This document shows positions 26,150 to 63,730 of a DNA stretch of 64,000 nt, one piece after another. Position numbers and translations under genes: made by a program. The DNA lies in contig CM059431.1 of NCBI GenBank assembly GCA_030390025.1, forward strand, positions 141,486,001 to 141,550,000, in the 5' to 3' direction. The notes beneath the pieces are model-generated. The model was not told where the DNA came from. It saw only the letters and a program-made list of their open reading frames with translations, and searched no databases. Each line of letters opens with the position of its first letter. The first letter of the stretch is position 1. The stretch is from Squalus acanthias (taxonomy: Eukaryota).

Positions 26150-27060
26150 TTCCTGCCGCCTGAGACTCCCCCATTCTCACTGCTCTGGGCGGAAATGCGC
26201 CATTTTGTGGCCAAAGTGCCTGAAGGCACCGCGCCCTCCACCCCCGGCCCAGACCCTGTATTGTGAGCCGGTTCAGCACATTCCTCGGGAGCTGATGCTG
26301 ACAGGAATCTCCCCTCCGTTTCTCTGCCGAGTTACAAAGCGGGTCTGTGACACTGTGAAGCCCCTCCCTCCCTCGCTGTGATCTAAACTCTGGGCTGAGC
26401 AGCCGCGCTGTCAGGCCGTGTGCTGAATGGAGCCGAGTTCCCTCAGTCACAGAGCGCGGCCCCTGTAACCCGGGCAACCATCCTGTTTCTTACCGTCACT
26501 CACACACCAGGCCGCGCCGCCCGGCCCGGCACACAGCAAACCCCGCCCACTGCACATCCCCGGATCAAAAGTGAGAAGTCGCACAACACCAGGTTATAGT
26601 CCAACAGTTTTATTTGAAATCACAAGCTTTCGGAGCGGCTGTTCCTTCGTCAGGTGAAGTAAAGGAATACAAATCGACAAGGCATATGCTTTGTCGATTT
26701 GTATTCCTTTACTTCCCCTGATGAAGGAGCATCCGCTCCGAAAGCTTGTGATTTCAAATAAAACTGTTGGACTATAACCTGGTGTTGTGCGACTTCTCAC
26801 TTTTGTCCACCCCAGTCCAACACCGGCATCTCCGCATCATCCCCAGATCAGCAAGGGAGCGGCACTGCGCCTGCGCTGGAGGGCAAGGGAACGTCACTGC
26901 GCCTGCACTGGAAGGCAAGGTAGCGTCACTGCGTCTGCGCTGCAGGGCAAGGGAGCGTCACTGCGCCTGCGCGGGAGAGCAAGGGAGCGTCACTGCGCCT
27001 GCGCGGGACCATGACAGCATCACCACACCGCCACCAGTGGCGGGAAGACTACACAACAAC
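26150..27060 (-). promoter_or_regulatory. CpG-island promoter-like region (copies at ~33270-33800 and ~36330-36850)
   Basis: GC box CCCCGCCCAC (26541); repeated NRF1-like TGCGCCTGCGC; ETS+YY1 GCGGAAATGCGCCATTTTG (~26190-26207); minus-strand donor ACG|GTAAGA at 26493. Confidence 0.65.
26568..26837 (+). mobile_element. Fold-back (palindromic) PLE-type non-autonomous retroposon with a hammerhead core in each arm
   Basis: 119-bp arms (26567-26685 / 26686-26804) with no loop, plus a 33-bp unique tail; 13-bp TSD catcccc(g/a)gatca; absent from the paralogous sites at ~33660 and ~36740. Confidence 0.9.
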
Positions 27061-32312: not shown

Positions 32313-32910
32313 CTCCAGGACCACTGTGTATCTGAGTCAATGGGACTCTCTCTGACCTTTCTCCCCAGTCCATCTCCAGGACCAGTGCGTATCTGAGTCA
32401 ATGGGACTCTCTCTGACCTTTCTCCCCACTCCATCTCCAGGACCAGTGTGTATCTGAGTCAATGGGACTCTCTCTGACCTTTCTCCCGGTCCATCTCCAG
32501 GACCAGTGTGTATCTGAGTCAATGGGACTCTCTCTGACCTTTCTCCCCGGTCCATCTCCAGGACCAGTGTGTATCTGAGTCAATGGGACTCTCTCTTACC
32601 TTTCTCCCCAGTCGATCTCCAGGACCAGTGTGTATCTGAGTCAATGGGACTCTCTGACCTCTCTCCCCAGCCCATCTCCAGGACCAGTGTGTATCTGAGT
32701 CAATGGGACTCTCTCTGACCTTTCTCCCCACTCCATCTCCAGGACCAGTGTGTATCTGAGTCAATGGGACTCTCTCTGACCTTTCTCCCCAGTCCATCTC
32801 CAGGACCAGTGTGTATCTGAGTCAATGGGACTCTCTCTGACCTTTCTCCCCACTCCATCTCCAGGACCAGTGCGTATCTGAGTCAATGGGACTCTCTCTT
32901 ACCTTTATCG
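32313..32910 (+). repeat. 61-bp minisatellite, longest array (others at ~23810-23960, 25711-25812, 30030-30165, 35700-35990, 41300-41640; reverse complement 53570-53830)
   Basis: Unit TCTCCAGGACCAGTGTGTATCTGAGTCAATGGGACTCTCTCTGACCTTTCTCCCCAGTCCA. Confidence 0.96.
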
Positions 32911-35900
32911 CCTGTCGATCTCTGGAAGCTCTTTGAATCGGAAGGGTTTTCTCTGGTTGGTGCTCTCACAATCCTGTGTTGGTTCACCTGCTGTTGTTCC
33001 TCAGTCTGCAATCCCTGTTTACTTACAGCTGTGGACCTTCCTCAATCACACCATCATTCACCGGGAGATCTAATAATGGCAGAGCAGAAAATGAGAACAA
33101 TATTGAAAGCGTGAAATAATGTAATGTAGACTTTTCTTCTGCTTACTAAAAATTAAATTTCAAGGCCGAGTATTTGTTTGATTTTGTCCCTTTCCTCAGA
33201 TCCCCAGTTCCGGGGCTGTGTGTTTAGTTTGGAGATTTTCCTCACAGTAAATTTCCGGACACCTGAGACTCCCCTATTCTCACTGCTCTGGGCGGAAATG
33301 CGCCATTTTGTGTCCAAAGTGCCTGAACCCAGCGCGCCCTCTACCCCCGGCCCAGCCCCTGCAATGTGAGCCGGTTCAGCACATTCCCCGGGAGCTGATG
33401 CTGACAGGAATCTGCCCTCCGTTTCTCTGCCGAGTTACAAAGCGGGTCTGTGACACTGTGAAGCCCCTCCCTCCCTCGCTGTGATCTAAACTCTGGGCTG
33501 AGCAGCCGCGCTGTCAGGCCGTGTGCTGAATGGAGCCGAGTTCCCTCAGTCACAGAGCGCGGCCCCTGTAACCCGGGCAACCATCCTGTTTCTTACCGTC
33601 ACTCACACCGGCCCGCGCCGCCCGGCCCGGCACACAGCAAACCCCGCCCACTGCACATCCCCGGATCAGCAAGGGAGCGGCACTGCATCTGCGCGGGAGA
33701 CCAAGGGAGCGGCACTGCGCCTGCGCGGAAGAGCAAGGGAGCGAGGCTGCATCACTCCAGCGCCACCAGTGGCGGGAGGACTACACAGGAAAATACCAAC
33801 AGAGGGAGGCCATTCAGCCCCTCCAGCCTGTTCCACCATTCAATTAGACCACGGCTGATCTGTGTCTTAACCCCATGGACCTGCCTTGGTTCCGTAATCC
33901 TTAATGCCCAACAAACATCTATTAATCTCAGTTTTGACATTTTCAATTGACCCCCAGCCTCAACAGCTTGTTGGGGAAAGAGAGTTCCAGATTTCCACCA
34001 CAATTTGTGTGAAGAAATCCTTTCCACCATCCAAAGGAACAAGATAATTACCTGAAGGGAAAAAAAATTGCAGTGCTACAGGGAAAGAGCGGGGGATTGA
34101 GCTGAAGTGCTCTTGCAGAAATCCAACACGGGTTTGACGAGCTGAATGGCCTCCTACTGTGCCGTAACGATGATTCTACCTCCCCTTAATGGCCTAGATT
34201 ATTTATTGAGAGTTGGATCTGAAATATATTTGAGTGTCTGGTACTACCTTAACACGCAGTATAATATCGATATTATGGGGAACATAAAAGTCGGTTCTTT
34301 CCAAGTTGGTGCTGGTGGCGGGGAGACAGTTAATATCTGCTGGGCTCTTGGATCAAACCCCTTCCAATCTTACAACACAGGAGGCCATTCTGCCCATGGT
34401 GCCTGTGCCGGCTCTTTGAAAAGATGTCAAAACCAGTCCCACACCCCAGCTTTTCCCCCATAACCCCGCAAATTCCTCCTCTTCAATTACAGGTCCAATT
34501 GCCTTTGGAAAGTTCCCATGGAATTTGTTTCCATCAGTTTATCAGGTGGTGCATTCCAGATCTTAAACCTCTGTGTAAAGCAAATTCTCCTAATTTCTCC
34601 TCCAGTTCTTTTGCCAATTATTTAAAAACTGTGACCTTTCGTTAACTCTCCACTTGCCAAAGGAAACATGTCTTCCTACTTGCTCTATCAAGACCCCTCA
34701 TAATTTTGTATAATTATTAGGTCTCCCCCTAACCTTCTCTGCTCTAAAGGCAACAATCCCAACTTCTCCGATCTCTCCACATAACTGAAGTCCGTCATCC
34801 CTGGTATCATCCTGGTAAACCTCCTCTGAACCCTCGCCATGACCTTGGCATCCTTCCTAAAGTGCGGTGCCCAGAATTGTACACAATACTCCAGCCCAAC
34901 CAGTGAATTGTAATGGGTTATCATTGACCTCCTTGTTTTTGTGTTCAATGCCCCATTTACAAAGCAAAATCTCCCACGCACTCACAAATGCCTTTTCAAC
35001 TTATCTTCCCACATTCAAAGATTTCTGAATATGCACCCCAGATCCCTCTGCTATTGTACCCCCTCAATATACTAGTCAAGTCAGTTCACACTGATCTGTA
35101 TTAAATTGCATCTGCCATGTGTCTGCCCATTTCACCAGTCAGTCTATGTCTTTCTAAAGTCTGCTACTATCCTGCTCACCATTTACAACAGTTAAACTTT
35201 GTATCATCAGCAAAACTCGAAGGTTCACTCCCTATACCGAAGTCCAGGACATTTAAAATATAAAAAAAATCAAAGGTCCCAATTCCGGGCCCTGGATGAC
35301 CCAATGCACACTTCTATCCAGTCAGAAAAACATCCGTTCACCACTGCTCTCTGCCTCCTATCACTCAGACAATTAGGAACCCAATTTACCACAGTCCCTT
35401 CAATACCTTGCGCTTCTATTTTCCAAACAAGTTGGTTATGTGGCCCTTTATCAAATGGCTTTTGAAAGTCCATATATACATCTACTGCACTGCCTTCATC
35501 AACCCTCTCTGTTACTTCATTTACAATAAAATACACACAAGATTCACTGGAACTGTGTGTTTAGAGACAGAAACTAATCTCACTTCACATCCGATTGCAA
35601 GGCCTCATGCTGGATAATTGTGCTCGGTGTTCAGACTCTCCCAGTCTCATTGCCACCATTCCCTGCCTTACCCTGTAATCTTCCTATACTGTCGACAGGA
35701 TCAGTGTGTATCTGAGTCAATGGGACTCTCTCTGACCTTTCTCCTCGGTCCATCTCCAGGACCAGTGTGTATCTGAGGCAATGGGACTCTCTCTGACCTT
35801 TCTTCCCGGTCCATTGCCTGGAGCAGCGTGTATCTGAGTCAATGGGACTCTCTCTGACCTTTCTCCCCAGTCCATCTCCAGGACCAGTGTGTATCTGAGT

Positions 35901-36914
35901 CAATGGGACTCTCTCTGACCTTTCTCCCCAGTCCATCTCCAGGACCAGTGTGTATCTGAGTCAATGGGACTCTCTCTTACCTTTATCCCCAGTCGATCTC
36001 TGGAAGCTCTTTGAATCGGAAGGGTTCTCTCTGGTTGGTGCTCTCACAATCCTGTGCTGGTTCACCTGCTGTTGTTCCTCAGTCTACAATCCCTGTTTAC
36101 TTACAGCTGTGGACCTTCCTCAATCACACCATCATTCACCGGGAGATCTAATTATGGCAGAGCAGAAAATGAGAATATTTATCGAAAGCGTGAAATAATG
36201 TAATGTAGACTTTTCTTCTGCTTACTAAAAATTAAATTTCAAGGCCGAGTATGTGTTTGATTTTGTCCCTTTCCTCAGATCCTCAGTTCCGGGGCTGTGT
36301 GTTTAGTTTGGAGATTTTCCTCACAGTAAATTTCCTGCCGCCTGAGACTCCCCCATTCTCAATGCTCTGGGCGGAAATGCGCCATTTTGTGTCCAAAGTG
36401 CCTGAACCCACCGCGCCCTCCACCCCCGGCCCAGCCCCTGTATTGTGAGCCGGTTCAGCACATTCCCCGGGAGCTGATGCTGACAGGAATCTCCCCTCCG
36501 TTTCTCTGCCGAGTTACAAAGCGGGTCTGTGACACTGTGAAGCCCCTCCCTCCCTCGCTGTGATCTAAACTCTGGGCTGAGCAGCCGCGCTGTCAGGCCG
36601 TGTGCTGAATGGAGCCGAGTTCCCTCAGTCACAGAGCGCGGCCCCTGTAACCCGGGCAACCATCCTGTTTCTTACCGTCACTCACACACCGGCCCGCGCC
36701 GCCCGGCCCGGCACACAGCAAACCCCGCCCACCGCACATCCCCGGATCAGCAAGGGAGCGGCACTGCGCCTGCGCGGGAGTGTAATGTGACGCGAACTCA
36801 TCACTATAGCGCCGTCAGTGGTGGGAGGACTACATCGGAACATATTAGCAGGAGGCGGCCATTCAGCCCATCCAGCCTGTTCCACAAACCAATTCGATTC
36901 GTTCCACAAACCAA

Positions 36915-38525
36915 TTCGATTCACTCCACTTGATTTCAGGAAAGGATTGAGCACACTGGATACAGAAAAGGCTATATGGACCCTGACAACATCCCGGCTA
37001 TCGTGCTGAAGACTTGTGCTCCAGAACTAGCCGCGCCTCCAGGCAAGCTGTTCCAGTACAGCTACAACACTGGCATCTATCCGACAATGTGGAAAACTGC
37101 CCAGGTATGTCCTGTCCACAAAAAGCAGGACAAATCCAATCCAGCCAATTACCACCCCATCAGTCTACTCTCAATAATCAGCAAAGTGATGGAAGGTGTC
37201 ATCGACAGTGCTATCAAGCGACACTTACTCACCAATAACTTGCTCACTGATGCCCAGTTTGGGTTCCGCCAAGACCACTCGGCTCCCGACCTCATTACAG
37301 CCTTGGTCCAAACATGGCAAAGGAGCTGAATTCCAGAGGTGAGGTGAGAGTGACTGCCCTTGACATCAAGGCAGCATTTGACTGAGTGTGGCATCAAGGA
37401 GCCCTAGTAAAACTGAAGTCAATGGAAATCGGGGGAAAACGCACCACTGGCTGGAGTCATAACTAGCACAAAGGAAGATGGTTGTGGTGGTTGAAGGTCA
37501 ATCATCACAGCCCCAGGATATCGCGGCAGGAGACCCTCAGGGCAGTTTCCTAGGCCCAATCATCTTCAGCTGCTTCATCAATGACCTTCCCTCCATTATA
37601 AAGGTCAGAAATGGGGATGTTCGCTGATGACTGCACAGTGTTCAGTGCCATTCACAACTCCTCAGATAATGAAGCAGTCCATGCCTGCATGCAACAAGAC
37701 CTGGACGACATTCAGGCTTGGGCTGATAAGTGGCAGGTAACATTCGCACCACAGAAGTGCCAGGCAATGACTATCTCCAACAAGCGAGATTCTAACCACC
37801 CCTCCTTGACATTCAACGGCATTACCATCGCCGAATTCCCCCCCAATCAACATCCTGGGGTGTCACCATTGACCAGAAATTAACTGGGCCAGTCACATAA
37901 ATACTGTGGCAACCAGAACAGGTCAGAGGCTAGATAATCTGAGGCGAGTGTCTCACCTCCTGACTCCCCAAAGCCTTTCCACCATATACAAGGCACAAGT
38001 AAGGAGTGTGATGGAATATTCTCCACTTGCCTGGATGAGTGCAGCTCCAACAACACTCAAGAAGCTCGACACCATCCAGGACAAAGCAACCCGCTTGATT
38101 GGCACCCCATCCACCACCTTAAACATTCACTCCCTCCACCACTGGCGAAACTTGGCTGCAGTGTGTACCATCTACAAGATGCACTGCAGCAACTCGCCAA
38201 GGCTTCTTCGGCACCACCTCCCAAACCCACGACCTCTTCAACCAAGAAGGACAAGGGCAGCAGGCGCATGGGAACACCAGCACCTCCAAGTTCCCCTCCA
38301 AGTCACACACCCTCCTGACTTAGAAGTATGTCGCCGATCCTTCATCGTCGCTGGGTCAAAATCCTGGAACTCCCTACCTAACAGCACTGTGGGAGTACCG
38401 TCACCACACGGACTGCAGTGGTTCAAGGCGGCAGCTCACCACCACCTTCGAGGGCAACTAGGGATGGGTAATAAATGCTGGCCATGCCAGCAACGCCCAG
38501 ATCCCATAAGCGAATTTTAAAAAAC
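36915..38525 (+). mobile_element. 5'-truncated non-LTR retrotransposon (CR1/L2-group RT, distinct family), present only in duplication unit 3
   Basis: PDNIPAIVLKTCAPELA..PVHKK..PISLLSIISKVME..QFGFR, MFADD, IYKAQVRSVMEY; A-rich 3' end. A 3' remnant of this family also lies at ~13820-13960. Confidence 0.88.
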
Positions 38526-41500
38526 AGCTATTAAAACAATAGCAAAATACTGTGGATGTTGAAATCCGAAATAACGGAAAATGCGAAGCAGGTCAGGCAG
38601 AATCCGTGGAGAGAGAAAAACGTCTTAATCTCAGTTTTGACCTTTTCAATTGACCTCCAGCCTCAACAGCTTTTTGGGGGATTGATTTCCAGATTTTTGC
38701 GACCTGTGTGAAGAAATGCTTTCCGCCATCCAAACGGAACTAGATAAGTACCTGAAAAAAATTGCAGGGCTACGGAGAAAGGGCGGGGGATTGAGCTGAA
38801 GTGCTCTTGCAGAGAGCCGGCACGGACTGGACGGGCCGAATGGCCTCCTACTGTGCTGTAACGATGATTCTATGATTCTATCACCCCTGAACGGCCTAGC
38901 TCTAAGTTGAAGTTTATGCCTCATTGTTCTGGACTCCCCCACCAGAGGAAAATTCGTTTTTCTCTATCCATCCTGTCAAATCCTTTAATCATCTTAAACA
39001 CCTCAATTAGATCACACCTTGATCTTCTATATTCAAGAGAATACAAGCCTAGTGTTTGCAACCTGTCCTCATAATTTAACCATTTTAGCTCAGGTCTCAC
39101 TCCGATGAATCTGCGCTGCATCCCCTCCAAGGCCAATATCTCTTTCCTGAGGGGCGGTGCCCAGAACTGAATAACATGTGGAACAATATTCTCTACTCAA
39201 AATGTATTGAGACAGAGGTTATCATATTTAAAAAGAAGCGTTACTAAACCATGGCAAGAGGAAGTCTTCTGAATTATATGTATAACCTACTGCTCAGAAA
39301 CAACAGGTTCCTACTCCTGGACTGCCGAATACACAGACAGGAGTTTACACTGAATGTTTCACGGTATTTCAGATATAAATTGGAGCCAAGGCCTCTTGTG
39401 CGGAGATCTGACAGATTGTTACCCTGGCAACAGAGGAAATCACTCAACGACAATAACTGAACACAGAAATAACAAAACCAACATCACTTGTTCGAAGTTT
39501 AGTTCAGAACATTAACCCTGAACATTCAGCCAGTGTTTCTAACCATGAAGCTGTGATTCCAGTACCGGATTGTACTACACCATCAGACTGCGGGTTTACT
39601 GATTCCACAGTCAGTCCCATCTGTACAGAACATTAAGCAGCGCCACATTGACAGAAATACATCAATAAAATAGTCGCATTTATTAAAATAGAAGATTTAC
39701 GTATCATTTTATCAGTTTATACTGAAATAAATCATTTAATTCAACTGCCATTGTGAAATTCAGAAATAGATTTACCGATAGAAAATAACGAAGTAAACCC
39801 AGTGTCCAGTTCAGAATTGAGAGATTATTTATTGCGAGTTGGATATGAAATATATGTGTGTGTCTGGTACTAACTTAACACGCAGTATAATATCGCTATT
39901 ATGGGGAACATAAAGGTCGGTTCTTTCTAAGTTGGTGCTGGGGGCGGGGCTCTTGGATCAAACTCCTTCCAATCTTACAATACAGCAGGTTATTCGGCCC
40001 ACATTGCTTGTGCCGGCTCTTTGAAAAGATGTCCAAACTAGTCCCACATCCCAGCTTTTTCCCCACAACCCTGCAAATTCGTTCCCCAAGTACAGGTCCA
40101 ATTGCCTTTTGAAAGTTCCCATGGAATTTGTTTACATCAGTTTTTCAGGTGGTGCATTCCAGATCTTAAACTGCTGTGTACAACAAATTCTCCTAATTTC
40201 CCCTCCAGCTCTTTTGCCAATTATTTTTAAACTGTGACCTTTCGTTAACGGCCCACTTGCCAGTGGAAACATTTCTTCCTATTTGCTCGATCAAAAACCC
40301 TCATAATCTGGAATATCTCTATTAGTTGTTCCCTTAATCTTCTCTGCTCTAAAGGCAACAATCCCAACTTCTCCGATCTCTCCACATAAGTGAAGTCCGT
40401 CATCCCTGGTATCATCCTGGTAAACCACCTCTGTACCCTCTACATGACCTTGGCATCCTTCCTAAAGTGTGGTGCCCAGAATTGTACACAATACTCCAGC
40501 CCAACCAGTGAATTGTAATGGGTTATCATTGACCTCCTTGTTTTTGTGTTCAATGCCCCATTTACAAAGCAAAATCTCCCATGCACTCTCAAATGCCATT
40601 TCAACTTATCTTCCCACCTTCAAAGATTTCTGAATCTGCACCCCCAGATCTCTCTGTTATTGTACCCCCTCAATATACTGTCAAGTCAGTTCACACTGAT
40701 CTGTATTAAATTGCATCTGCCATGTGTCTGCCCATTTTGCTAGTCAGTCTATGTCTTTCTAAAGTCTGCTACTATCCTGCTCACCATTTACAAGAGTCAA
40801 ACTTTGTATCATCAGCAAACCTCGAAGGTCCACTCCCTATACCGAAGGCCAGGACATTTAAAATAAGGAAAATCAAAGGTCCCAATTCTGACCTCTGGAT
40901 GACCCAATGCATCCTTCTCTCCAGTCAGAAAAACATCCGTTCACCACTGCTCTCTGCCTCCTATCACTCAGACAATGAGGAACCCAATTTACCACCGTCC
41001 CTTTAATACCATGCGCTTCTATTTTCTGAACAAGTTTGTTACGTGGCCTTTTATCAAATGGATTTGAAATTCCATATATACATCTACTGCACTCCCCTCA
41101 TCAACCCTCTCTGTTACTTCATTTACACTAAATCACTCACAAGATTCACTGTGACTGTGTGTTTAGAGACAGAAACTGATCTCACTTCACATTTCATTGC
41201 ACAGCCTCATGCTGGATAATTGTGCTCGGTGGTCAGACACTCCCAGTCTCATTCTCACTATTTCCTGCCTTACTGTGTAGCCTTTGTGTGCTGTCTACAG
41301 GACCAGTGTGTATCTGAGTCAATGGGACTCTCTCTGACCTTTCTCCCCCAGTCCATCTCCAGGACCAGTGTGGATCTGAGTCAATGGGACTCTCTCTGAC
41401 CTTTTTCCCCGGTCCATCTCCAGGACCAGTGTGGATCTGAGTCAATGGGACTCTTTCTGACCTTTCTCCCCAGTCCATCTCCAGGACCAGTGTGTATCTG

Positions 41501-41849
41501 AGTCAATGGGACTCTCTCTGACCTTTCTCCCCAGTCCATCTCCAGGACCAGTGTGGATCTGAGTCAATGGGACTCTCTCTGACCTTTTTCCCCGGTCCAT
41601 CTCCAGGACCAGTGTGGATCTGAGTCAATGGGACTCTCTCTCTCTCACTGACTCTGAGAGCTGAGCTGTGTCTGCAGTTCGCTGCAAACTGTAAAGTCCG
41701 GCTGTGTGGGGCGGGGAAGGAAGGAAGTGAAGCATCTTAATCAGAATATTCAACAATCACAACCGGCATTAACTGTGGCTCAGCGCGGGAATTCAGAGGG
41801 AACTGTCCCCGTGTTGGAAGGCGAGAGACAACAAGAGGATTACACACAT

Positions 41850-43332: not shown

Positions 43333-43810
43333 GCACCAGTAAATGGGGGGGGAATTGGGGGAGGGCGCACCAGTAAATGGGGGGGGAATTGGGGGAGGGC
43401 GCACCAGTAAATGGGGGGGGAATTGGAGGAGGGCGCACCAGTAAATGGGGGGGGAATTGGGGGAGGGCGCACCAGTAAATGGGGGGGGAATTGGGGGAGG
43501 GCGCACCAGTAAATGGGGGGGGGAATTGGGGGAGGGCGCACCAGTAAATGGGGGGGGGGGGAATTGGGGGAGGGCGCACCAGTAAATGGGGGGGGGAATT
43601 GGGGGAGGGCGCACCAGTAAATGGGGGGGGAATTGGGGGAGGGCGCACCAGTAAATGGGGGGGCGGAATTGGGGTAGGGCACCAGTAAATGGGGGGAATT
43701 GGGAGAGCGCACCAGTAAATGGGGGGGAATTGGGAGAGCGCACCAGTAAATGGGGAGAATTGGGAGAGCGCACCAGTAAATGGGGGAATTGGGGGAGGGC
43801 ACCAATAAAT
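43333..43810 (+). repeat. ~33-bp G-run minisatellite (GCACCAGTAAATG7-11AATTG5AGGGC)n
   Basis: About 14 units with variable G-run length. Confidence 0.95.
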
Positions 43811-44019
43811 GGTCTCCTTCTCCAGATAATAGGGTGCGGGATGATCTGATAGAGATCTTTAAAATTATGAAGTGGTTCGTCTGGGTCGTTAAAGAAGACT
43901 TTCCACTTGTGGAGGTGTCCAGATTTAGGGGCCATAATTATGAGTCTAATAAATGCAATAGGGAACTCACCCGATACTTTACCGAGACAGTAGTTAGGAT
44001 TTGAAACTCTCCCCTACAT

Positions 44020-44270
44020 GGTGTGTGTGGCGCACTGATCCGCAAACTCTCCGCACCAACCCCGCCCGCGCAGTCTCTGATTCGGATCCGGTTCCCGATA
44101 TATCCACGCGGCCCGGCTCCATCAGCCGCTCATCAGCCCGCTTTCCAGCGGCCCCCGTCACTCGGCCATTTTGGTTCAACTGAATATTACTGGAACCTGC
44201 GCGTCATCCGGGGGTTGGGGGTCAATATCGAGCATGCGCACTGCGGCCACTGCGCAAGTTGGCTCCAGAA
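44020..44270. promoter_or_regulatory. CpG-rich promoter-like segment
   Basis: GC box CCCCGCCC, YY1-like GCCATTTTG (~44165), NRF1-like GCATGCGCA (~44232). Confidence 0.45.
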
Positions 44271-45306
44271 ATTTATGAGAAGTCGCACAACACCAGGTTA
44301 TAGCCTCAGCAGCCAGGAGAAGGGGAAGGAGAGTGAGGAGCAGCAGCAGCAGCAGCAGCAGCAGAGTGGTGGTCTCTGTGACCAGGAAGAGGAGAAGGAG
44401 ACCAGACAGCAGACCACCACCAACAACCAACAACCACTACAACTGAGGTGCCTGGAGAGAGAGGACAGGAGAGGAGAAAGAAAAGAAAGGAAGGCCAAGG
44501 CCAATAACACCAGAGGAGAGGCCTTTCCATCACTGCCTCCTCAATTGGCCTCCATTTTAGGAGAGGGAGAGAGGGGAGAAAACATCACAACATCCATCAT
44601 CTGTTTGGAAGGAGGAAGGAAGGAAAGAACAGCTACAGGTGGGTGTGATTCTGGTGCACTCTCCCAGAGACTTTGTTTTGTAGGTGGGGGGAGGAAAGAA
44701 GAAAAGAAGAAGGCCGGAACATCCAAGGGGTGTGTGTGTGGCTTCTGTAAAAGCTAGGCCGCACACACCACTAATAAACACCCCTTCCCATTGCCTGGCC
44801 TGGGACAGCTGGAGCTGCCTAGGTGAAGTCCCCAATTCAACAAACATCTAATTGGGCATCGTTAAGACCTGGTGCAGGACTGAGCCTGGGCATCTCCAGC
44901 TTTCCCAGGTGAAGACATCTTCTCCCCCCACCAGAAGACCACCACCAAAGACTTTTATTTACATCGGAGAGTGCACCACCCCCTGCCAACACCCACCCAC
45001 CCACCATCCTGAGTGGCGACCCTGCCCTTGCGGCTTCCCTCCTTCCCACCCCCTCTCTCTCTCTCTTTGTCTCTTGTCTCTCTCTGCCTCTCTCTCTAAG
45101 AGGCACCTCAAATTACTTTTAATTAAGTACCCATTGAGCAGAGGGGAGAAGGCCCCTCTCCCAATTCAATCATATAAAGGGAGAGGTGTGCCTTCAATTT
45201 AAGAGCTCCCTCTGCTCAGGGGAAAACAAAAACAAAAAACCAGAGGCCATTAACACCTTCAGGCCTGTGACTTGGGGTGAGTGTAGCCCTTAAAGACCCG
45301 TCCATT

Positions 45307-47467
45307 ATGGCGAGCACATCTTCGTCGGTGGCGGGGGCAGCGAGGGCATATGCGAGCGTGGCAGCCGCGGCCACGGCCGCAGCCACGAGTCCTCCTGTTA
45401 CCCCGTCACCTTTTACCCTCCTTACGAGGAAGAATGGGGTCAAGAGCTACACTCACCCCAATATGACAATAGAGGCGTGCGTAAAAGCCATGGCTGGGGT
45501 TGTCGGTCCTTCAGCCATCGTCGCCGCCTCTAAAATGTATGGCAAGGCTGTGTTCTTCCTGGGGTCGGAGCGGGCGGTGTCCCTGGCCATCGAGAAGGGG
45601 CTCACCGTGGGCGGGACCTTCCTGCCGGTGGATCCCCTTGAGGCCACCACGCAGAGGATTGTTGTTTCCAACGTCCCGCCCTTTGTTCCGGGTGAGCTCC
45701 TCCTCCCCCACCTACGTCAACTGGGGGAGGTGAGGTCGGGGATCACACCCATCCCGCTCGGCTTCCGGGAAGCCAGCCTTCGGCACGTTTTCTCCTTCTG
45801 GCGCCAGCTTTTCGTCCGGCTAGCGCGGGAGGAGGACGCGGACGGTGCGTTCACGGTGCTCCACGGGGGGACCGCCCACCGCGTCTTCTGGACCTCGGAC
45901 GGCGTGCGGTGCTACGCCTGTAAGGAGGTGGGGCACGTCCGCAAAAACTGCCCCGCCTCCAAGGCCGCCACGACACCTAGCACGGCCAGGGCTGGCGCCG
46001 CCGCCCCCCCTCCCCCTGATACTGTCCGCGCGTCGAAGACGATGGATGCGCGGTCGAAATCGGAGGCCAACACCATCACGGCCTCCGGCGGGGGGGAGGG
46101 AGAGCGTCCGAGGGGAAAGAAGGCGCTTAGAAAGACGAAACACCTAAGGGCGGATCCCCTCGTGGAGGAAACATCCGATTTGACCGAACTCACGCCCGAG
46201 TACATCGCGGAGTTGATCGGAAAGCGTGAGACTGGGGGGGTCCTCGTGCCCGGGCCCGTGACCGTGACCGCAACTGCCAAGGCAGCTAAATCAAGACCTG
46301 CGGCCGGGCTCGGGCCCGAGGGGCCGAAGAAACCCAGTCATCGGAAGGGGGCAGAGAGGGAGGCCCCAGCAGACATGGAGGCCTCCCCCTCTCCGGGCCC
46401 CAATATGTTAAAAAGGAAGCTCGATACCCAGGAGGAGGACTGCGAGGAGGAAGGTCCCTCCGCAGAAGGGGAGTCGTCGCCCGCCGCGGGTACTGCGCCC
46501 CACCCAACCACCGTCATCGTGGTGCGCGAGCGGCAGGGGTCGCCTGTCCCTCGGGAGGGTGAGACAGCCGAGTCTGTCCGACCTGTGCCTCCGGGGGATG
46601 GGGAAGAGACCCTGCCCGTGGGGGGGGGGGGGGCGCGGAACAACCCGCGGATATTAATAAAAATCCAGAACCGTTGCTCCTCGCCGGGTCGGGCGTCCTG
46701 GGGACTGGGGCGGGCGAGGCCAAAGAGGCTGAAGCTGAGCCCGCCTTTTACAACCCAGATATCTCCCAGGGACTGCTCGACCTGGTGGAGGAGTACAACA
46801 ATCCCCAGCCCGCTGGGTCGGAGGTTGGTGGCGGGGAGACAGAAAGCCCCCTGGCTCCGTCTCTGATGTTGGCGCCGGACGTACTGGAGGACTTTGAAAT
46901 TATTTTCTCCCCGGTTTCTCCGGTCGCTCCGGCGCCTGAGGCGGGGGGGGGCGCCCCGAACCGCCGCCGCATCCCGGCCCTGCGCCCCTGAAGGAGCCCA
47001 GGGTGGACTCCACTGCCACCGATCCTGGGGGTGGGATCGTGACGGAGGCGGGGCCGGCCGGTGCGGCCGAGCCGTTCGCTGCACCCCGTGCGACGGACGG
47101 GTTGGCCGCCGGTGACGACCTCCCGGAGGAGGACGGGGACTCGGTGTTGGGCACCGAGGATGATTTGGAGTCCATCGGCAGCGAGGCGATGGACGCCCTC
47201 GTGCCCTTCACCGACTCTCCCCTCATCCCCGTAGGGGAACTCTGGGATTTTATGGCCACGAGCCAGGGTCGTCACAAGAAGATCCGGCTGGCCCTCGACA
47301 AGTGGTCGGAGCTGGCGCTGCTCGTCATGTCCGTCCGCGCCGCCATTAAAATCATGGGCGCGGACAAGGACGTTGGCCGGCTCGAGCTGCGTCAGCTCAA
47401 GACGTTCCACACTGGGCTGCTGCGGGAGTGGCGGTCGTCAGTGACCGCGCTCCCTCCCCCCCGTTAG
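45307..47467 (+). pseudogene. Tx1 ORF1 (gag-like, zinc knuckle), frameshifted at G homopolymers
   Basis: VGPSAIVAASKMYGKAVFFL..RIVVSNVPPFV..CYACKEVGHVRKNC (CX2CX4HX4C); frame changes near 46620 and 46945; TAG at 47465-47467. Confidence 0.85.
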
Positions 47468-47492
47468 GTAGAAGTTGCACTACGCTTCTGAG

Positions 47493-49340
47493 ATGAAGAT
47501 AACCATAGCCAGCCTCAACATCAACGGCAGCAGGGAGGCGCGCCGTAGATTCAATAACTTCTCGGTCCTTCGGGACGGGAAATATGCCGTGTGCTTCCTG
47601 CAAGAAACCCACACCGTTCCGGGAGACGAGGCCACGTGGCTCCTGGAGTGGCAAGGAGGGGTCAGCATGAGTCACCTCTCCAACAATTCCTGCGGGGTGG
47701 CTGTCTTGCTGGCCCCGCATTTTCAGCCGAAGATCTTGAGGGTCAAGGAGCACGTGCAGGGCCGCTTGCTCCAGGTCACTGTTTGCCTGGGAGGCGTGCC
47801 GCTCCATTTAGTGAACGTGTACGCCCCCCGGACCGGTGCGCAGCAAGTGCGCTTCTTCGGAGAAGTGTCCGCTCTTCTGGGCTCCATCGACGTGGGCGAG
47901 TGCGTCATCCTCGGGGGGGATTTCAATTGTACCCTCGAGGCGCGGGACCGGTCGGGTCCCCCGCGAAGCCCGGCGGTGATGGAGAAGTTGCGGGACCTGG
48001 TCGGGTCCTTCGACTTGGTGGACGTCTGGTGAAATCTCCATCCCGACTCCAGCGCCTTCACGAGCGTGAGGTCTGGAGGAGGAAGGTCCAGAATCGACCG
48101 CCTTTACATTTCCCGGGCGTACGTCTCCTGCATTCCGGCGGCTTCCATGCGGCCGGTGCTGTGCACGGACCACCACCTGGTGTGGGCGGAGCTCGCTCCG
48201 CTGCGCGCGCGGAGTGGGGGTCCGCGTACTGGCATTTTAACAACCTGCTGCTGGAGTACGCACGGTACCGGGATTCGTTTCGCCGGTTCTGGGCCGACTG
48301 GAGAAGGAAGCGGGGAGGCTTCCCCTCCTTGAGGCTATGGTGGGACGTGGGCAAGGCTCACGTCCGCGTCTTCTGTCAGGAGTACGCGAAGGGGTCGACC
48401 AAGAGGCGGGAGGTTCGGGTCGGGCGATTGGAGAAAGAAGTGCTCGTCCTGGAGTCCCGTCTCGGTCAGGTCGTCGAGGACCCGGCCCTGCGGAAGGTGT
48501 ACGAAGAGAAGAAGGGCGCGCTGAAGGACCTGCAGCTGGTCGGGTCCCGAGGCGCATACGTGAGGTTGCGGATCCAGTTCCTGCGGGACGTGGACCGCGG
48601 CTCCCCCTTCTTCTACTCGCTGGAAAAAAGACGGTGGGTCCGTAAGCAGCTCTTGGGGCTGCTGGCCGACGACGGATCTCTGGTCTCGGATCCGGAGGGC
48701 ATCAGCGCGGAGGCCCGGGCCTATTACGGGGCTCTGTTCTCTTCGGATCCGTCCAGCGAGGATGCGCGCAGAGTTTTGTGGGAGGACCTGCCGAAGGTCG
48801 GCCCGGAGGGCGCCGAGAATTTAGAAGCTCCGCTAAGCCTGGCGGAGCTGACCGGCGCCCTGCGCCAGCTCTCGAGAGGCAAGTCCCCGGGGCTGGACGG
48901 GCTGACCGTGGAGTTCCACAGGGCGTTCTGGGACGTCTTGGGGGACGACTACGCGCGGGTCCTGGGGGAAAGTCTGGCGACCGGGGAGATGCCCCTCTCT
49001 TGGCGCAGGGCGGTCATCGTCCTGCTGCCCAAGAAGGGCGATTTCCGCCTACTTAAGAACTGGCGTCCGGTCTCCCTCCTCAGCACGGACTACAACATTT
49101 TCGCCAGGGCTATGTCTGCTCGCCTTGGCACCGTGCTGGCCCACATGATCCACCCCGACCAGTCCTACATGGTCCCGGGCCGGAGTATCCACGATAACAT
49201 CCATCTGGTCCGGGATCTGGTCCACCATTCCCAGAGGGCTGGTCTGTCGGTCGCCTTCCTTTCCCTAGATCAGGAGAAGGCGTTCGACAGGGTGGATCAC
49301 GAGTATCTTTTCGGGACTCTGCGCGCATTCGGGACATCTC
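47493..49340 (+). pseudogene. Tx1 ORF2 (APE endonuclease + N-terminal RT), disrupted
   Basis: MKITIASLNING, FLQETH, VNVYAP, LGGDFN, SRIDRLY, TDHH; W.FNNLLL, KSPGLDGLTVEF, NWRPVSLL, SLDQEKAFDRVDH; in-frame TGA at 48030 and frameshift at ~48210. Confidence 0.92.
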
Positions 49341-52300
49341 GTAACCCGGGGAGGATGGGCCCATTGAGATCAGACAGTGTGTAACCCGGGGAGGATGGCT
49401 CCAGTGAGATCAGACAGTGTATAACCCGGGGAGGATGTGCCCAGTGAGATCAGAAATTGTGTAACCCGGGGAGGATGGGCCCAGTGAGATCAGACAGAGT
49501 GTAACCCGGGGAGCATGGGCCCAGTGAGATCAGACAGTGGGTAACCCGGGGAGGATGGGCCCAGTGAGATCAGACAGCGTGTAACCCGGGGAGGATGGGC
49601 CCCGTGAGATCAGTCAGTGTGTAACACGGGAAGGATGGGTCCAGTGAGATCAGACAGTGTATAACCCGTGAAGGATGGGCCCAGTGAGATCAGACAGTGT
49701 GCAACCCGGGGAGGCTGGGTCCAGTGAGATGAGACAGGTCGTAACCTGGGGAGAATGGGCCCATTGAGATCAGACACTGTGTTACCCGGGGAGGATGGGC
49801 CCAGTGAGATCAGACTGTGTGTATCCCGGGGAGGATAGGCTCAGTGTGATCAGACAGTGTGGAACCCGGGGAGGCTGGGCCCAGTGAGATCAGACACTGT
49901 GTTACCCGGGGAGGATGGGCCCAGTGAGATCAGGCAGTGTGTAACCCGGGGAGGATAGGCTCAGTGTGATCAGACAGTGTGGAACCCGGGGAGGCTGGGC
50001 CCAGTGAGATCAGACAGTGTGTAACCAGGGGAGGTAGTGACCAGTGAGATCAGACATTGTGTAACCCGGGGAGGATGGGCCCAGTGAGATCAGACAGCGT
50101 GTAACCCGGGGAGGATGGGCCCCGTGAGATCAGTCAGTATGTTACCCGGGGAGGATGGGCCCAGTGAGATCAGACTGTGTGTATCCCGGGGAGGATAGGC
50201 TCAGTGTGATCAGACAGTGTGTTACCCGGGGAGGATGGGCCCAGTGAGATCAGGCAGTGTGTAACCCGGGGAGGATAGGCTCAGTGTGATCAGACAGTGT
50301 GGAACCCGGGGAGGCTGGGCCCAGTGAGATCAGACAGTGTTTATCCCGGGTAGGGTAAGCCCAGTGTGATCAGACAGTGTGTTACCCGGGGAGGATGGAC
50401 CAAGTGAGATCAGACAGTGTGTAACCCGGGGAGGATGGACCAAGTGACATCAGACAGTGTGTAACCCGGGGAGGATGATCCCAGTGAGATCAGACAGTGT
50501 GTAACCCGGGGAGGTTGGGCCACGTGAGATCAGTCAGTGTGTAACCTGAGGAGGATGGGCCCAGTGAGTTCAGACAGTGTGTAACCGGGGAGGATGGGCC
50601 CAGTGAGATCAGACAGTGTGTAACCCGGGGAGGATGGGCCCAGTGAGATCAGACAGTGTGTAACCCGGGGAGGTTGGGCCACGTGAGATCAGTCAGTGTG
50701 TAACCCGGGGAGGTTGGGCCACGTGAGATCAGTCAGTGTGTAACACGGGGAGGATCGGCCCAGTGAGATCAGACAGAGTGTAACCAGGGGAGGATGGGCC
50801 CAGTGAGATCAGACAGTGTGTAACGGGGAGGATAGGCCCAGTGAGATCAGACAGTGTGTTACCCGGGGAGGATGGGCCGAGTGAAATCAGAAATTGTGTA
50901 ACCCGGGGAGGATGGGCCCAGTGAGATCAGACAGAGTGTAACCCATGAAGGATGGGCCCAGTGAGATCAGACAGTGGGTAACCCGGGGAGGATGGGCCCA
51001 GTGAGATCAGACAGCGTGTAACCCGGGGAGGATGGGCCCCGTGAGATCAGTCAGTATGTAACACGGGAAGGATGGGCCCAGTGAGATCAGACAGTGTGCA
51101 ACCCGGGGTGGATGGGCCCAGTGAGATCAGACAGTGTATAACCCGTGAAGGATGGGCCCAGTGAGATCAGAAAGTGTGCAACCCGGGGTGGATGGGTCCA
51201 GTGAGATGAGACAGGTCGTAACCTGGGGAGGATGGGCCCATTGAGATCAGACAGTGAGTAACCCGGGGAGGATTGTCCCAGTGAGATTAGACAGTGTGAA
51301 ACCCGGGGAAGATGGGCCCAGTGAGATCAGACTGTGTGTAACGGGGAGGATGGGCCCAGTGAGATCAGACAGTGTGTTACCCGGAGAGGATGGGCCCAGT
51401 GAGATCAGACTGTGTGTATCCCGGGGAGGATGGGCCCAGTGAGATCAGACAGTGTGTAACCCGGGGAGGATAGGCTCAGTAAGATGAGACAGTGCGTAAA
51501 CCGGGGAGGATGGGTTCAGTGAGATGAGACAGTGCGTAAACCGGGGAGGATGGGCCCAGTGAGATCAGACAGTGTTTATCCCGGGTAGGGTAAGCCCAGT
51601 GTGATCAGACAGTGTGTAACCCGGGGAGGAAGAGCCCAGTGAGATGAGACAGTGCTTAAACCGGGGAGGATGTGTTCAGTGAGATGAGACAGTGCATAAC
51701 CCGGGGAGGATGGGCCCAGTGAGATCAGACAGTTGTTTAACCCGGGGAGGAAGAGCCCAGTGAGTTAAGACAGTGTGTAACCCGGGGAGAATGAGCCCAG
51801 TGAGATCAGTCAGTGTGTAAACCGGGGAGGATGGGCCCAGTGAGATCAGACTGTGTAACAGGGGAGGTTGGTCCCAGTGAGATCAGCCAGGGTGAAACCC
51901 GGGGCTGATGGGCCCAGTGAGATTAGATGGTGTGTAACCCAGGGAGGATGGGCCCAGTGAGATCAGACAGAGTGTAACCCGGGGATTTTGGGCCCAGTGA
52001 GGTCAGACGGTGTGCAACCCGAGGATAATGGGCCCAGTGAGATCAGACAGTGTGTAACCCGGAGAGGATGGGCCCAGTGAGATCAGTCAGTGCGTAACCC
52101 AGGGAGGCTGGGCCCAGTGAGATTGGACAGTGTTTAATCCGGGGAGGATTGTCCCAGTGAGATCAGACAGAGTGTAACCCGGGGAGGATGGGCCCAGTGA
52201 GATCAGATAGTGTGTAACTCGGGGATGATGGGCCCAGTGAGATCAGACAGTGTGTAACCCGGAGAGGATGGGCCCATTGTGATCAGACAGTGTGCAACCC

Positions 52301-52756
52301 GAGGAGGATGGGCCCAGTGAGATCAGTCAGTGCGTAACCCGGGGAGGATTGGTCCAGTGAGATCAGACAGTGTGTAACCCGGGGAGGATGGGCCCAGTGT
52401 GATCAGACTGTGTGTAACCCGGGGAGGATGGGTCCAGTGAGATCAGACAGTGTGTAACCCGGGGAGGATGGGCCCAGTGTTATCAGACAGTGTTTAACCC
52501 GGGGAGGATGGGCCCAGTGAGATCAGACAGTGTTTAATCCGGTGAGGATTGGTCCAGTGAGATCAGACAGTGTGTAACCCGGGGAGGATGGGCCCAGTGA
52601 GATCAGATAGTCTGTAACCCGGGGAAGATGGGCCCAGTGCGATCAGACAGTGTGTAACCCGGAGAGGATGGGCCCAGTGAGATCAGACAGTGTTTAACCC
52701 GGGGAGGTGGCGCCCAGTGAGAACAGACAATGTGCAACCCCGGGAATGATGGGCCT
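49341..52756 (+). repeat. 40-bp minisatellite, ~85 units (GTAACCCGGGGAGGATGGGCCCAGTGAGATCAGACAGTGT)n
   Basis: Directly visible; variant units recur in blocks. Confidence 0.98.
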
Positions 52757-54429
52757 TGTAAATACACCGGCATCTCCGCATCTTGTAAATTCAAACAGCC
52801 CCGCTTTGTCTAATGTGCAGAGAGAAGATGTTACGTTTCAGCATCAAATTCTGGGGATTCGGAGGAAGCCCAGGCGGTTGGCCCGAGGTTCGGAGGAAGG
52901 GACAGAAATACTCGCCTCTAAACCTGAAGAGCCGGAGTACCCCATCAGCGATTGGTCCCACTGTTATCTCGGCAATCTGTGACACATTTTCCGAAATAAC
53001 ATTGGATTTCCTGTTGAAAACTACAGAGAGAAGAAGAGTTTCATAAACCGCGTTATTGATCAGGGCAGGAGCTGAGCTTTGTCTGAAATAAGCAGGGATT
53101 GTATAACTGAGAGCGGCTGGGGTTGGGAATAGTTGGGAGTTAATGCAGTAATCTTTGAGGATAACAAAGTGTTAGTTCGAGCAATATGATGGCGTTTGTT
53201 GGGATTTGGCGATGCTGCTGTGGATTAGAACGAGCAAAGGGAGACCAATCATTTGGTGAGAATGGAGGAAACAGCAGCGAACAAATTAATAACAGCGCTG
53301 TGGTTGGTACGTGGGAATTTACTTCACAGTCAATATTTAGATAATTACATACACGTGCACACTACATTCGACTTCACATCGTCAAATTGTGTTCATTTTC
53401 TACCCTCCCATAATTAGATCACCCGCTAAATGATGGAGTGATTGAGGAAGGTCCACAGCTGGAGTAAACAGGGATTGTCGACTGAGGAACCAGGTGAACC
53501 AGCACAGGATTGTGAGAGTACCAACCGGAGAGAACCCTTCCGATTCAAAGAGCTTCCAGAGATCGACTGTGGATAAAGGTAAGAGCGAGTCCCATTGACT
53601 CAGATACACACATGTCCTGGAGATGGACTGGGGAGAAAGGTCAGAGGGAGTCCCATTGACTCAGATACACACTGGTCCTGGAGATGGTCTGGGGAGAAAG
53701 GACAGAGAGAGTCTCATTGACTCAGATACACACTGGTCCTGGAGATGGCCTGGGGCGAAAGGACAGAAAGAGTCTCATTGACTCAGATACACACTGGTCC
53801 TGGAGATAGACTGGGGAGAAAGGTCAGAGAGATTTTCTCATTGATCCAGATGCTAACTGGTTCTGTAGACAGTGCACAAAGCTAACATGTAATGCAGAAA
53901 ATGATGACAATGAGACTGGGAGAGTCTGACCACCGAGCACAATTATCCAGCATGAGGCCGTGCAATGAAATGTGAAGTGAGGTCAGTTTCTGTCTCTAAA
54001 CACACAGTCACAGCGAATCTTGTGTGTTTTTAGAGTAAAGGGTTTTGATCTAAGAGTTGAGTGAAATCTGAGGCAGAGCCCAGCAGATGGAAACGTGTCT
54101 GTTTATTAGGCGGGGCTGAATTCACATCGACAACATCAGATCTCAATTTTAAAATGGCTCAGATCTGGTGACTAATCAAATGGAAAAATTGAACTGAAAA
54201 CATCATAGTCAATTCACTGATCACAATGAAAACACAATCTGAAAGATCAGCCAAGCGTATCACAGATATAATAAATTATTCATTCACAAACAATCATAAT
54301 TAGAACGAAACATATTTCTAACTACAAACATTGATCATTTGTGATTTATTGATCACTAAAAATATTAGAATTTTAATGTAACAACATGGAGAATTGCAAT
54401 ATATTGATTGACGTCCTATTTGACGCTGA

Positions 54430-54690
54430 GATGAGCTTGCAACCCCATAATCGCTTGATCACCAAATGTGCCTGCTTCCACCACCATAAAAATCACCGGC
54501 TTCTGCCTCAGTCTCTGCTCAACTGCTGCTGGAACCCTCATTCATGCCTTTGTTACCTCTGAACTCTAATATTCCAAAGCTCTCTGGCCGGCGTCTCCTC
54601 ATGCACCCTCTGCAATCTCGAGCTCATCCAAAGCTCGGCTACCCATAACCTAACTGGCACCAATTCCAGTTCATTCATCACCCCTGTGGT
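54430..54690 (+). mobile_element. L2 fragment
   Basis: ctgctggaaccctcattcatgcctttgttacctct..catcacccctgt, an L2 C-terminal signature. Confidence 0.7.
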
Positions 54691-55929
54691 CGGAATGGAT
54701 GTAAACTCACTGATCCCAGGTTCAATCTGGCGGCTGGAACTGCTACAGATGTGCGGGGTTCTGGCGCTGCACAGCCAGGACCGCCCTCCCGTGTAGACTG
54801 AGGCTAATGATTGGATTTCTGTTGTTGTTTGAACAATCTTCTGTTGTTCACTTGTTAACGAATTAAGTCTTAACGTTATAAACACTTTGCTTCTTTCTAC
54901 TTTAACATAATAAAAACAATCTAAAAGCTGAGTATAATTTCATCATATTATAACACAATTTACGTGAACTTTTGTCAGCAGATTTGAGCGTAGGCATGTG
55001 CTCCTCCTTTTACATTTCTTTCTTCTAAAACTTAACACAAAAACTTATTTTTACATACTGTTTCTCTTTATCGAACTGGCAATGCCCTTGCCTGGTCATT
55101 GCAACTTCCATCAGCCGATGCTTACGCACACAAGTTTACATTTCCCTACAACATATGTATATCAACATCCCTTCACGTTGGTTGCAATGTCCTTGTTGAC
55201 ATTCTTATTTGCAGGGATCCCAGTTTTAGTCTAAGGGCCTGAACCTGGTCACTTGATCAAGCTGACTGTTGCTCAGTGAAATCCGTATTTCTCTCTCTCT
55301 CTCCATCTCTCTCAATCTCGCTCGGTCTCAATGAGGCCAACCACTATTGTTTTTGCTCTCTATTGAATGAGCTAAAATTAACACTTTCCAGCAGGGCAAA
55401 TATCCGAATTCCATGCACCAACACAGGCGAATCTTGTCCACTGACAACACAAATCCTAAATTGCAGGAGCGCTGCCCAAGGTTATTGAACAGAAAACCCT
55501 GAGCAAAGGGTCCCCCATTCTCCTGTGTCCGCGGGCAAGGCTCCCCGCCGGCAGCACCAAATCTGAAATAAACGACCTCCATGGTCTCCATAATATCGAT
55601 ATTATACTGCGTGATATGGCAGTACCAGAAATTGCTACCGAATTAAACTATATTTAACATTAAATTGTTAAAATAAGTAAACTGACAGGTCTCAACAAGA
55701 AGCTGGGTGAAACTTTTCAAAAATATGCCCCATCGTAACATCTGTTTCTCGATTTAACAATTTAAGTTGAATTCAATGGATATTAATTAAACATAAAACG
55801 ATGATAAAATTATCACCAAACGTTATTAATTTTCAATCAGAAATTTCAACTTAATTCAAATGAATAATGTTGTGTGTTGTGTCGGAATAGTGGTAGTGAT
55901 CATAATTCAGTTTGAATTGAATAGTTGTG

Positions 55930-59055: not shown

Positions 59056-59254
59056 TGATGTGGAGATGCCGGTGTTGGACTGGGGTGGACAAATGTGAGA
59101 AGTCGCACAACACCAGGTTATAGTCCAACAGCTTTATTTGAAATCACAAGCTTTCGGAGCGACTTCACCTGACGAAAGAGCAGCGCTCCGAAAGCTTGTG
59201 ATTTCAAATACAGCTGTTGGACCATAACCTGGTGTTGTGCGAGTTCTCACATTT
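59056..59254 (-). mobile_element. Fold-back hammerhead retroposon, copy 2 (shortened centre)
   Basis: Same arms and tail as 26568-26837; 12-bp TSD atcaacattcta; one core CTGACGA-AAGAGC-AGC-GCTCC-GAAAGCTT on the plus strand. Confidence 0.9.
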
Positions 59255-59269
59255 ATCAACATTCTAGTG

Positions 59270-61214: not shown

Positions 61215-63730
61215 AGGCACAGCCTTGATTCCCCTCGAGTCCAAAAATCTATCTATCTCAGCCTTCAATATACTCAAAGATTCAGCATTTATAGCCCTCT
61301 GGGAGAGAGAATACCAGAGATTCACAACCCTCTGAGTGAAGAAATTCCTCCTCATCTCACTCTTAAATGGCATACTCCTTATCCTGAGACTCTGCCCCCT
61401 AGTTCTAGACACTCCAGCCGGGGGAAACAACCTCTCAGCATCGAACCTGTCAATCCCCTTCAGAATCTTATATATTTCAATGAGATCACCTCTCATTCTA
61501 CTAAACTCCAGAAAGTATAGGCCCATTCTACAAAATCTCTCATCCCAGGAATCAATCTCGTGAAACTTTGTTGCACCGTCTCCAAGGCAAGTATATCCTT
61601 CCTTAGCTATGGAGACCAAAACTGTGCACAATACTCCAGGTTTGGGCTCATCAAGGCCCTGTACAATTATTGCAAGACGTCCTTACTCATATACTCCAAC
61701 CCCCTTGCAATAAAGGCCAACATGCCATTGCCTTCCTTATTGCTTGCTGTACCTGCATGCTAGCTTTCTGTGTTTCTTGCACAAGGACACCCAAATCTCT
61801 CTGAACACCAACATTTGAAAGTTTCTCACCATTTAAAACATATTCTATTTTTCTATTCTTCCTACCGAAGTGAATAAACTCACATTTCCCTACATTATAC
61901 TCCATCTGCCACATTTGCCCACTCACTTAATCTATCTATACCCCTTAGCAGACTCGTTGTGTTCTCCTCACAGCTTACTTTCCCACCTAGTTTTGTAACA
62001 TCAGCAAACTTGAATATTTTACACTCGGCCCCTTCATCTAGGTCATTAATATAGATTATAAATAACTGAGGCCCCAACACTGATCCTTGCGGCACCCCAC
62101 TAGTTACAGACTGACAACTCTCTGTTTTCTGTCCGCTAACAAATCTGCTATCCATGCCATTATATTATTCCCAACGCCGTGAGCCCAAATCTTGTTTAAT
62201 AACCTTTTATGTGGCACCTTATCGATTGCCTTTTGGAAATCCAAATATACTGCATCCACTGGTTCCCCTTTATCTACCCTGCTAGTTACATCCTTAAAAG
62301 TCTCTAATAAATTTGTCAAACACGATTTCACTTTCATAAAACCATGTTGACTCTGCTTAATCATGTTATGATTTTTCTAAGTGACTTGATACCACTTCCT
62401 TAACAATGGATTCCAGCATTTTCAATACGAACGATGTCAGGCTAACTGGCCTGTAGTTCCCTGTATTTTCTCTCCATCCTTTCTTGAATAGCGGTGTTAC
62501 ATTTGCGACCTTCTAATCCCCTGGGGCCATTCTAGAATCTATTTAATTTTGGAACATCTAAACCAATGCATCCACTATCTCTTCAGTCACCTCTTTTAGA
62601 ACCCTAAGAGGTAGGCCATCAGTTCCAGGGGATTTGTCGGCTTTTAATTTCTCTTGTTCTTTTTCGCTACTTATATTAATTACGTTAAGTTCCTCACCCT
62701 CATTAGACCCTTGGTTCCCCACCATTTTTGGTATGCTTTTCGTGTCTTCTACTGTGAAGACAGATACAAAATATTTGGTATACATTTCTGCCATTTACTT
62801 ATTCCCCATAATAATTGCTCCTGTCTCAGCCTCTAAGCGACCAAAGTTTACTTTTGCTACTGTCTTCCTTTTTACATACTTGTAGACGCTCTTACAATCT
62901 GATTTGATATTTCCTAATAGTTTTCTCTTATATTATATTTTTATGATGCGGAGATGCCCGTGTTGGACTGGGGTGGACAAAAGTGAGAAGTCGTACAACA
63001 CCAGGTTATAGTCCAACAGTTTTATTTGAAATCACGAGCTTTCGCAGCGACGGTGGTGTCGAAGGAGCAGCCGCTCCGAAAGCTTGTGATTTCAAATAAA
63101 ACTGTTGGACTATAACCTGGTGTCGTGCGACTTCTCAATTATATTTTTACCCTTTCTATCAAATTTTTGGTCAACCTTTGCTGGTTTCTGAAACTTTCCC
63201 AATCCTCAGGCTTACTATTATTCTTTGAAACTTTATAAGCTTTTTCTTTCCAACTAATGCTATCCTTAACTTCTTTAGTTAGTCACGGTTGGATCACTTT
63301 CCCGTGGAATTTTTGTTTCTCAATTAAATGTATTTTGGTTGAGAATTATGAAATATTGCTTTAAATGCTAGACACTGCTTATCTACCGCCATGCCTTTTA
63401 ATCTATTTTTTCCAATCTACCTTATCCAACTCGCCCCTCATACCTATGTAATTGGCTTTATTTAAGTTTAAGACTCTAGTTTCGGACTCAGGCAAGTCAC
63501 TCTCAAAATTAACGTGAAATTATATCATATTATGACCCAGATTACCCTTTACTATGAGATTGCTAATTAACCCTGTCTCATTACACAGTACAAGATCTAA
63601 AATAGCCTGCGCCCTGGTTGGTTCCGTGATATATTGTTCCAGGAAACTGTCCCGAATACATACCATAAACTCGTCCTTCAGATTACCTTTGCCAATTTGA
63701 TTTGTCCAGTCTATATGAAGATTAATGTCT
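61215..63730 (-). mobile_element. Decayed CR1 ORF2
   Basis: SQHGFMK.KSCLTNL, GVPQGSVLGP, KFADVTKLGG, RRNFFTQRVVNLW. Confidence 0.9.
62944..63137 (-). mobile_element. Fold-back hammerhead retroposon, copy 3 (CTGA of the cores lost), inserted in CR1
   Basis: Same arms and tail; 12-bp TSD attatattttta. Confidence 0.9.

Follow-up and report, generated by a model that had tools for sequence, protein, structure and literature searches.

Does a Tx1 LINE that begins inside the arm of another mobile element owe its position to a choice of target, or to accident? The question is raised by the locus at 44276 in the window, by which we mean the whole stretch of 64,000 nucleotides of Squalus acanthias DNA that was analysed. 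Here 28 nt (44276..44303, minus strand) correspond to the outer end of the tail-less inverted pLTR arm of a Penelope-like element (PLE) insert; the PLE sense is the minus strand, and the 28-mer forms the 5' flank of the LINE. It is identical at 28 of 28 positions to arms at 26572, 26799 and 59096, and its pattern has seven matches in the window when up to three mismatches are allowed (four of them exact, including the 44276-44303 copy), against 0.00 expected from 100 shuffles, which bears out to the letter the claim of an earlier, sequence-only reading that this stretch equals the start of a fold-back arm. The remaining six of the seven matches are both arms of three fold-back inserts (26566-26840, 59056-59255 and 62943-63137). 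The 28-mer is followed directly by TCCAACAG in all six of these arms, whereas at 44304 a CAG-rich leader stands in its place, and the arm's continuation is thus lost there, as that reading had also said. The observation as a whole, a Tx1 start within a PLE arm, is confirmed as real and correctly described.

The repeat itself can be characterised from the three intact inserts, each flanked by a 13-nt duplication with one mismatch. The insert at 26566..26840 (plus strand), which was used as the reference, has two empty target sites, in paralogues near 33660 and 36740, and carries a minimal hammerhead motif in each arm, at 26657 (minus strand) and 26714 (plus strand). The insert at 59056..59255 (minus strand) likewise has two empty target sites, and in the insert at 62943..63137 (minus strand) the short arm starts at the first base of the 28-mer. 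All three combine a long arm bearing a tail of about 39 nt with a short, tail-less arm, and so display the pLTR anatomy of PLEs: an inverted truncated copy, a tail at one end and a flanking duplication. The literature on PLEs reports just such an inverted truncated copy, with a tail of 30-40 bp on one side (PMC8557442, PMC3846280), and minimal hammerheads as well (PMC4209133). The motif was not recovered in the inserts at 59056..59255 and 62943..63137, the predicted hammerhead fold has type-I topology and is no better than shuffles (z 0.08), and a search of Rfam gave 0 matches. Among the 86 reading frames scanned there was no match to a GIY-YIG domain, the inserts being too short to carry an RT/GIY-YIG ORF, so that the label PLE rests on DNA anatomy. 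The junction falls between AATAAA and the PLE tail, outside the hammerhead motif. A minimal hammerhead motif is also present in a distinct second repeat family, seen at 5383-5483 (minus strand) and 10996-11096 (plus strand), and also near 7328-7429 and 58547-58648; this family is probably another PLE end.

The place where the 28-mer begins bears on which of the two elements arrived first. In all three intact inserts the short arm begins at the 28-mer or just before it, with 6, 5 and 0 extra letters, and the copy at 44276 starts at 0. Because these starts coincide with the 28-mer start, the 28-mer can be taken as PLE sequence, the usual outer terminus of an insert, and not as host DNA, and because it starts at the tail-less arm boundary of intact inserts, the PLE insert most likely came first, with the LINE landing inside it in antisense orientation. 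From 44304 to 59000 nothing was found that continues the PLE arm. The last 19 nt of a PLE tail occur at 52764..52782 (plus strand), and were considered as the far half of a split PLE; this was rejected, as they form a separate small insert, placed directly where the minisatellite described below ends, which has an 8-nt direct repeat of its own and is missing at a paralogous site near 24775, and their flank does not match 44240-44278.

The flank that received the PLE insert (44014..44275, no strand assigned) is low-copy and GC- and CpG-rich (CpG o/e 1.04, compared with 0.10 in the Tx1 leader and 0.91 in its ORFs). Contigs from four of 24 sequencing runs were aligned to 44000-49345, and 20 of the 24 runs hold part of the stretch. 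In run X1, which may be the sample from which the window derives, a single contig is exact over 44094-44296 at a depth of 24.8. A contig of 508 nt from run X2 follows 44000-44278 at 93% identity (19 differences) and then continues for 174 unlike letters, without the arm; it probably represents this site in a paralogue that lacks the insert, and, so read, it places an insertion boundary at the arm start, where it diverges. The 64-kb window itself contains no empty paralogue of this site, and none of the loose ends listed from the run contigs, beyond which 797 more exist, lies at 44276 or 44304. Since the flank upstream of the 28-mer is low-copy, it is not Tx1 leader; for this reason we rejected insertion of the PLE into a Tx1 leader. 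Just upstream of the flank, a G-rich 34-bp minisatellite of 14 units (43333-43812) lies within an RT-bearing LINE remnant.

Downstream of the junction, the Tx1 LINE opens with a 5' leader of 1003 nt with a CAG/purine-rich head (44304..45306, plus strand), which has no second copy in the window and is multi-copy in four of four runs from about 44358. The leader had been said to run into ORF1; it does precede ORF1, but not immediately, given its length. ORF1 (45307..47467, plus strand) has an ATG at 45307 and a CCHC zinc knuckle (Pfam zf-CCHC, E 1.2e-4), and is frameshifted: its first frame ends at the stop at 46866, and coding plausibly goes on in two other frames up to 47467. ORF2 (47493..49333, plus strand) carries an APE endonuclease and the first part of an RT (Pfam Exo_endo_phos, E 2e-9; RVT_1, E 6e-18), is colinear with residues 1-626 of the 1308 of Xenopus Tx1 ORF2, and has been damaged by a premature stop at 48030-48032, a frameshift near 48212-48215 and the loss of its 3' half. 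The LINE body is covered in all four runs compared, and 150-168 places, or about 3% of sites, separate the window copy from the family majority. Other copies run on past 49333 with RT sequence (12 contigs of X2, one of X7), so the cut at this position is peculiar to the 44276 locus; and since the LINE is cut there, its 3' junction and target duplication are lost, in line with the earlier claim. What follows the broken RT is a 40-bp minisatellite fused to it (49341..52755, no strand assigned, 85.5 units by TRF), and the window copy is a broken and poor representative of its family. A second array of the same 40-bp unit occupies 24777-25587, and both arrays end at rearrangement junctions. A module with a 61-bp tandem repeat (23640-41650 and 51946-54039) occurs in at least six duplications, one of them inverted.

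Protein comparisons place the LINE in the Tx1 clade, as proposed at the outset, and there within the Tx1L subgroup. The RT-side region is 56% identical to Xenopus Tx1 ORF2 over 371 residues and the endonuclease 48% identical to that of Tx1L over the first 179 residues; in a midpoint-rooted protein tree of 30 rows, hand-picked from 120 matches listed plus the query, the LINE falls in a nine-row clade at 100/100 with Tx1L and rows from turtle (five), sturgeon (one) and stingray (one). Its nearest protein match overall is an unnamed protein (76%). The hairpin loop, which helps to choose the target (PMC1950540), has 8 residues between its anchors here as against 11 in Tx1L. A contig of X2 spans 47972-48142 without gaps, so other copies have the short loop as well, and a loop of this length is consistent with a target other than that of Tx1L. 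Six of the nine matches checked, the sea turtle gene models P0003-P0007 and P0012, hold 2-4 copies of the same RT segment, which suggests that Tx1L-subgroup copies are closely spaced or tandem in turtle genomes. A distant fish-type Tx1 relative (L011, 1-192) starts directly after a long CT run; a start after a CT run has been described for Kibi. Near the beginning of the window (55-2690) are LINE fragments in opposite orientations, with a GDSL-esterase-like ORF1 and an APE domain.

We consider it probable, at roughly 70%, that this LINE family aims at the PLE arm and that three events account for the locus. In the first, a PLE truncated at its 5' end, whose inverted arm lacked the tail, would have inserted at about 44276, the anatomy seen in the intact inserts being carried over to this locus. 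In the second, the Tx1L-subgroup LINE would have inserted 28 nt inside the PLE arm by target-primed reverse transcription, antisense to the PLE. Its position is observed; that its APE endonuclease recognises pLTR sequence, with an abundant and harmless repeat serving as the landing site, is suggested by the habit of the clade, as in Tx1L and the crocodilian families. If the general mechanism applies, the 5' junction after TTATAG would represent the second-strand cut, and the first nick would have been made a few bases further left, in the strand that is sense for the PLE, while the duplicated stretch would originally have stood after the 3' end. In the third, a later deletion or rearrangement may have fused the RT to the minisatellite, a break that is visible in the sequence, and would have removed the LINE 3' half together with the duplication and what remained of the PLE. 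Under target-primed reverse transcription, the LINE 3' end should be followed first by the duplicated stretch ending in TTATAG and then by TCCAAC, which amends the earlier expectation of the continuing arm at 3' ends.

The earlier interpretation of the locus is supported in part. A lone copy in the window cannot prove aimed insertion, and against targeting it can be said that this copy lies in a rearranged region, has departed from the family majority to the extent given above and has no readable duplication. One PLE-arm junction of this Tx1 family was observed, that at 44304. The junction 20-mer had 0 matches in metagenome contigs and the arm 18-mer had 0 in viral contigs; in prokaryote genomes the arm 18-mer had 9 matches, against 17 expected by chance, none of which extends beyond 26 nt. 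Of 232 candidate stretches in metagenomes, 9 proved to be related loci, none of them close (29-45% identity), and as a set they show nothing of the PLE arm beyond one chance 13-mer; the viral and prokaryote candidate stretches yielded 0 of 7 and 0 of 290. The arm and the leader, in translation, matched no stored protein.

How surprising the coincidence is can be expressed in numbers that call for caution. Given how densely PLE DNA occurs in the window, about 1.3% of insertions with randomly placed 5' ends would adjoin it, a weak figure because the finding was picked for this very coincidence; the probability of hitting this exact base is 7e-5, a value that is unusable because the base was not named beforehand. 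A Tx1 element with no preference for the PLE repeat, or with another target, might simply have landed in a very common repeat: PLE-derived DNA makes up 1.1% of the window, with seven arms in 64 kb, and where very many windows are surveyed, 1% coincidences get flagged. We regard such nesting by chance as unlikely, however, as the prior odds in the Tx1L subgroup favour specificity and the expectation per insertion is low.

Another account divides the LINE in two, with a head (44304 to about 44430) that came from a PLE-targeting Tx1 and ORFs that came from a second Tx1 seated in the CA-rich spot of the leader, for which the CA-rich run at 44411-44443 would be suited. This composite is compatible with targeting by the head and does not exclude it, but one contig connects 44376-44426 with the sequence from 44513 on, the depth seen across the unmasked head resembles the family depth (a weak indication), and no internal duplication was noticed in an informal look; we hold it to be quite unlikely. 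Very unlikely, too, is a reading in which the LINE recognises the end of the PLE as a structure or intermediate and not as plain sequence. The LINE sits 28 nt away from the boundary of the short arm, within a long inverted repeat that could extrude as a cruciform, and in another PLE the short-arm boundary is an internal start of reverse transcription (PMC11167929). Were the LINE to home on fresh or extruded PLE ends, one retroelement would be tracking the integration product of another, and read-through transcripts of the LINE would end in a PLE hairpin and hammerhead.

The 28-mer might also have travelled as a 5' extension, copied along with the LINE from a master copy seated in a PLE arm. 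There is precedent for this in SINEU-2B and Mariner-N4 (main text of PMC4494074), and neither the downstream half of the PLE nor a duplication remains to show that the PLE stood first. The start of the 28-mer, however, is the natural short-arm boundary, an unlikely spot for random truncation; in X7 the depth of the arm bin exceeds that of the LINE body by a factor of some tens, although this is a rough measure and depth is not copy number; and X10 holds the LINE yet has a depth of 0 in the arm bin, leaving very little likelihood to a travelling extension. Fusion of a PLE insert and a nearby Tx1 by deletion, so that the junction is not an insertion site, has parallels in the fusion at the other end of the LINE (49333), in the segmentally duplicated, minisatellite-rich region and in a loose resemblance of the LINE head to the arm continuation, but it requires an extra event and the 1 kb leader looks near-complete, which makes it highly improbable.

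If, as we prefer, the insertion was aimed at the PLE arm, a retroelement end repeat would join the DNA transposons, LTR elements, snRNA genes and microsatellites that serve as Tx1 landing sites. How APE endonucleases change target is a standing question, and this LINE, with its shorter loop and other site, would form a natural pair with the biochemically studied Tx1L. In the literature searched (titles and the starts of abstracts) we found no Tx1 element aimed at a PLE, and the main text of PMC4494074 has 0 occurrences of "Penelope" or "shark"; target alignments in its supplement, as well as Repbase and Dfam, may bear on novelty.

Among known systems, the window inserts resemble the pLTR fragments of PMC4209133, PMC8557442 and PMC11167929 in having a truncated copy in inverted orientation, a tail on one side and a minimal hammerhead of type I with a palindromic helix III. 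Unlike PLEs with a coding body, they have no attached RT/GIY-YIG and are recognised by their pLTR anatomy. Tx1L is inserted in Tx1D, and other transposons are likewise the targets of the crocodilian Tx1 families (PMC4494074; PMC6719617), which prefer fixed positions in Mariner-N4, LTR elements and Harbinger (PMC4494074, main text). The LINE described here is like Tx1-Mar and the other crocodilian families of that study in being a Tx1-clade LINE positioned in another transposon. It is closest in plan to Tx1L of Xenopus laevis (UniRef YTX2, P0037), with which it shares a CCHC ORF1, an APE-RT ORF2 and a seat in another mobile element. It is nevertheless distinct from Tx1L itself, for which target specificity is known: its hairpin loop is three residues shorter, its own specificity is a candidate only, and whereas Tx1L sits in the piggyBac-type DNA transposon Tx1D, the window LINE sits in the pLTR arm of a PLE.
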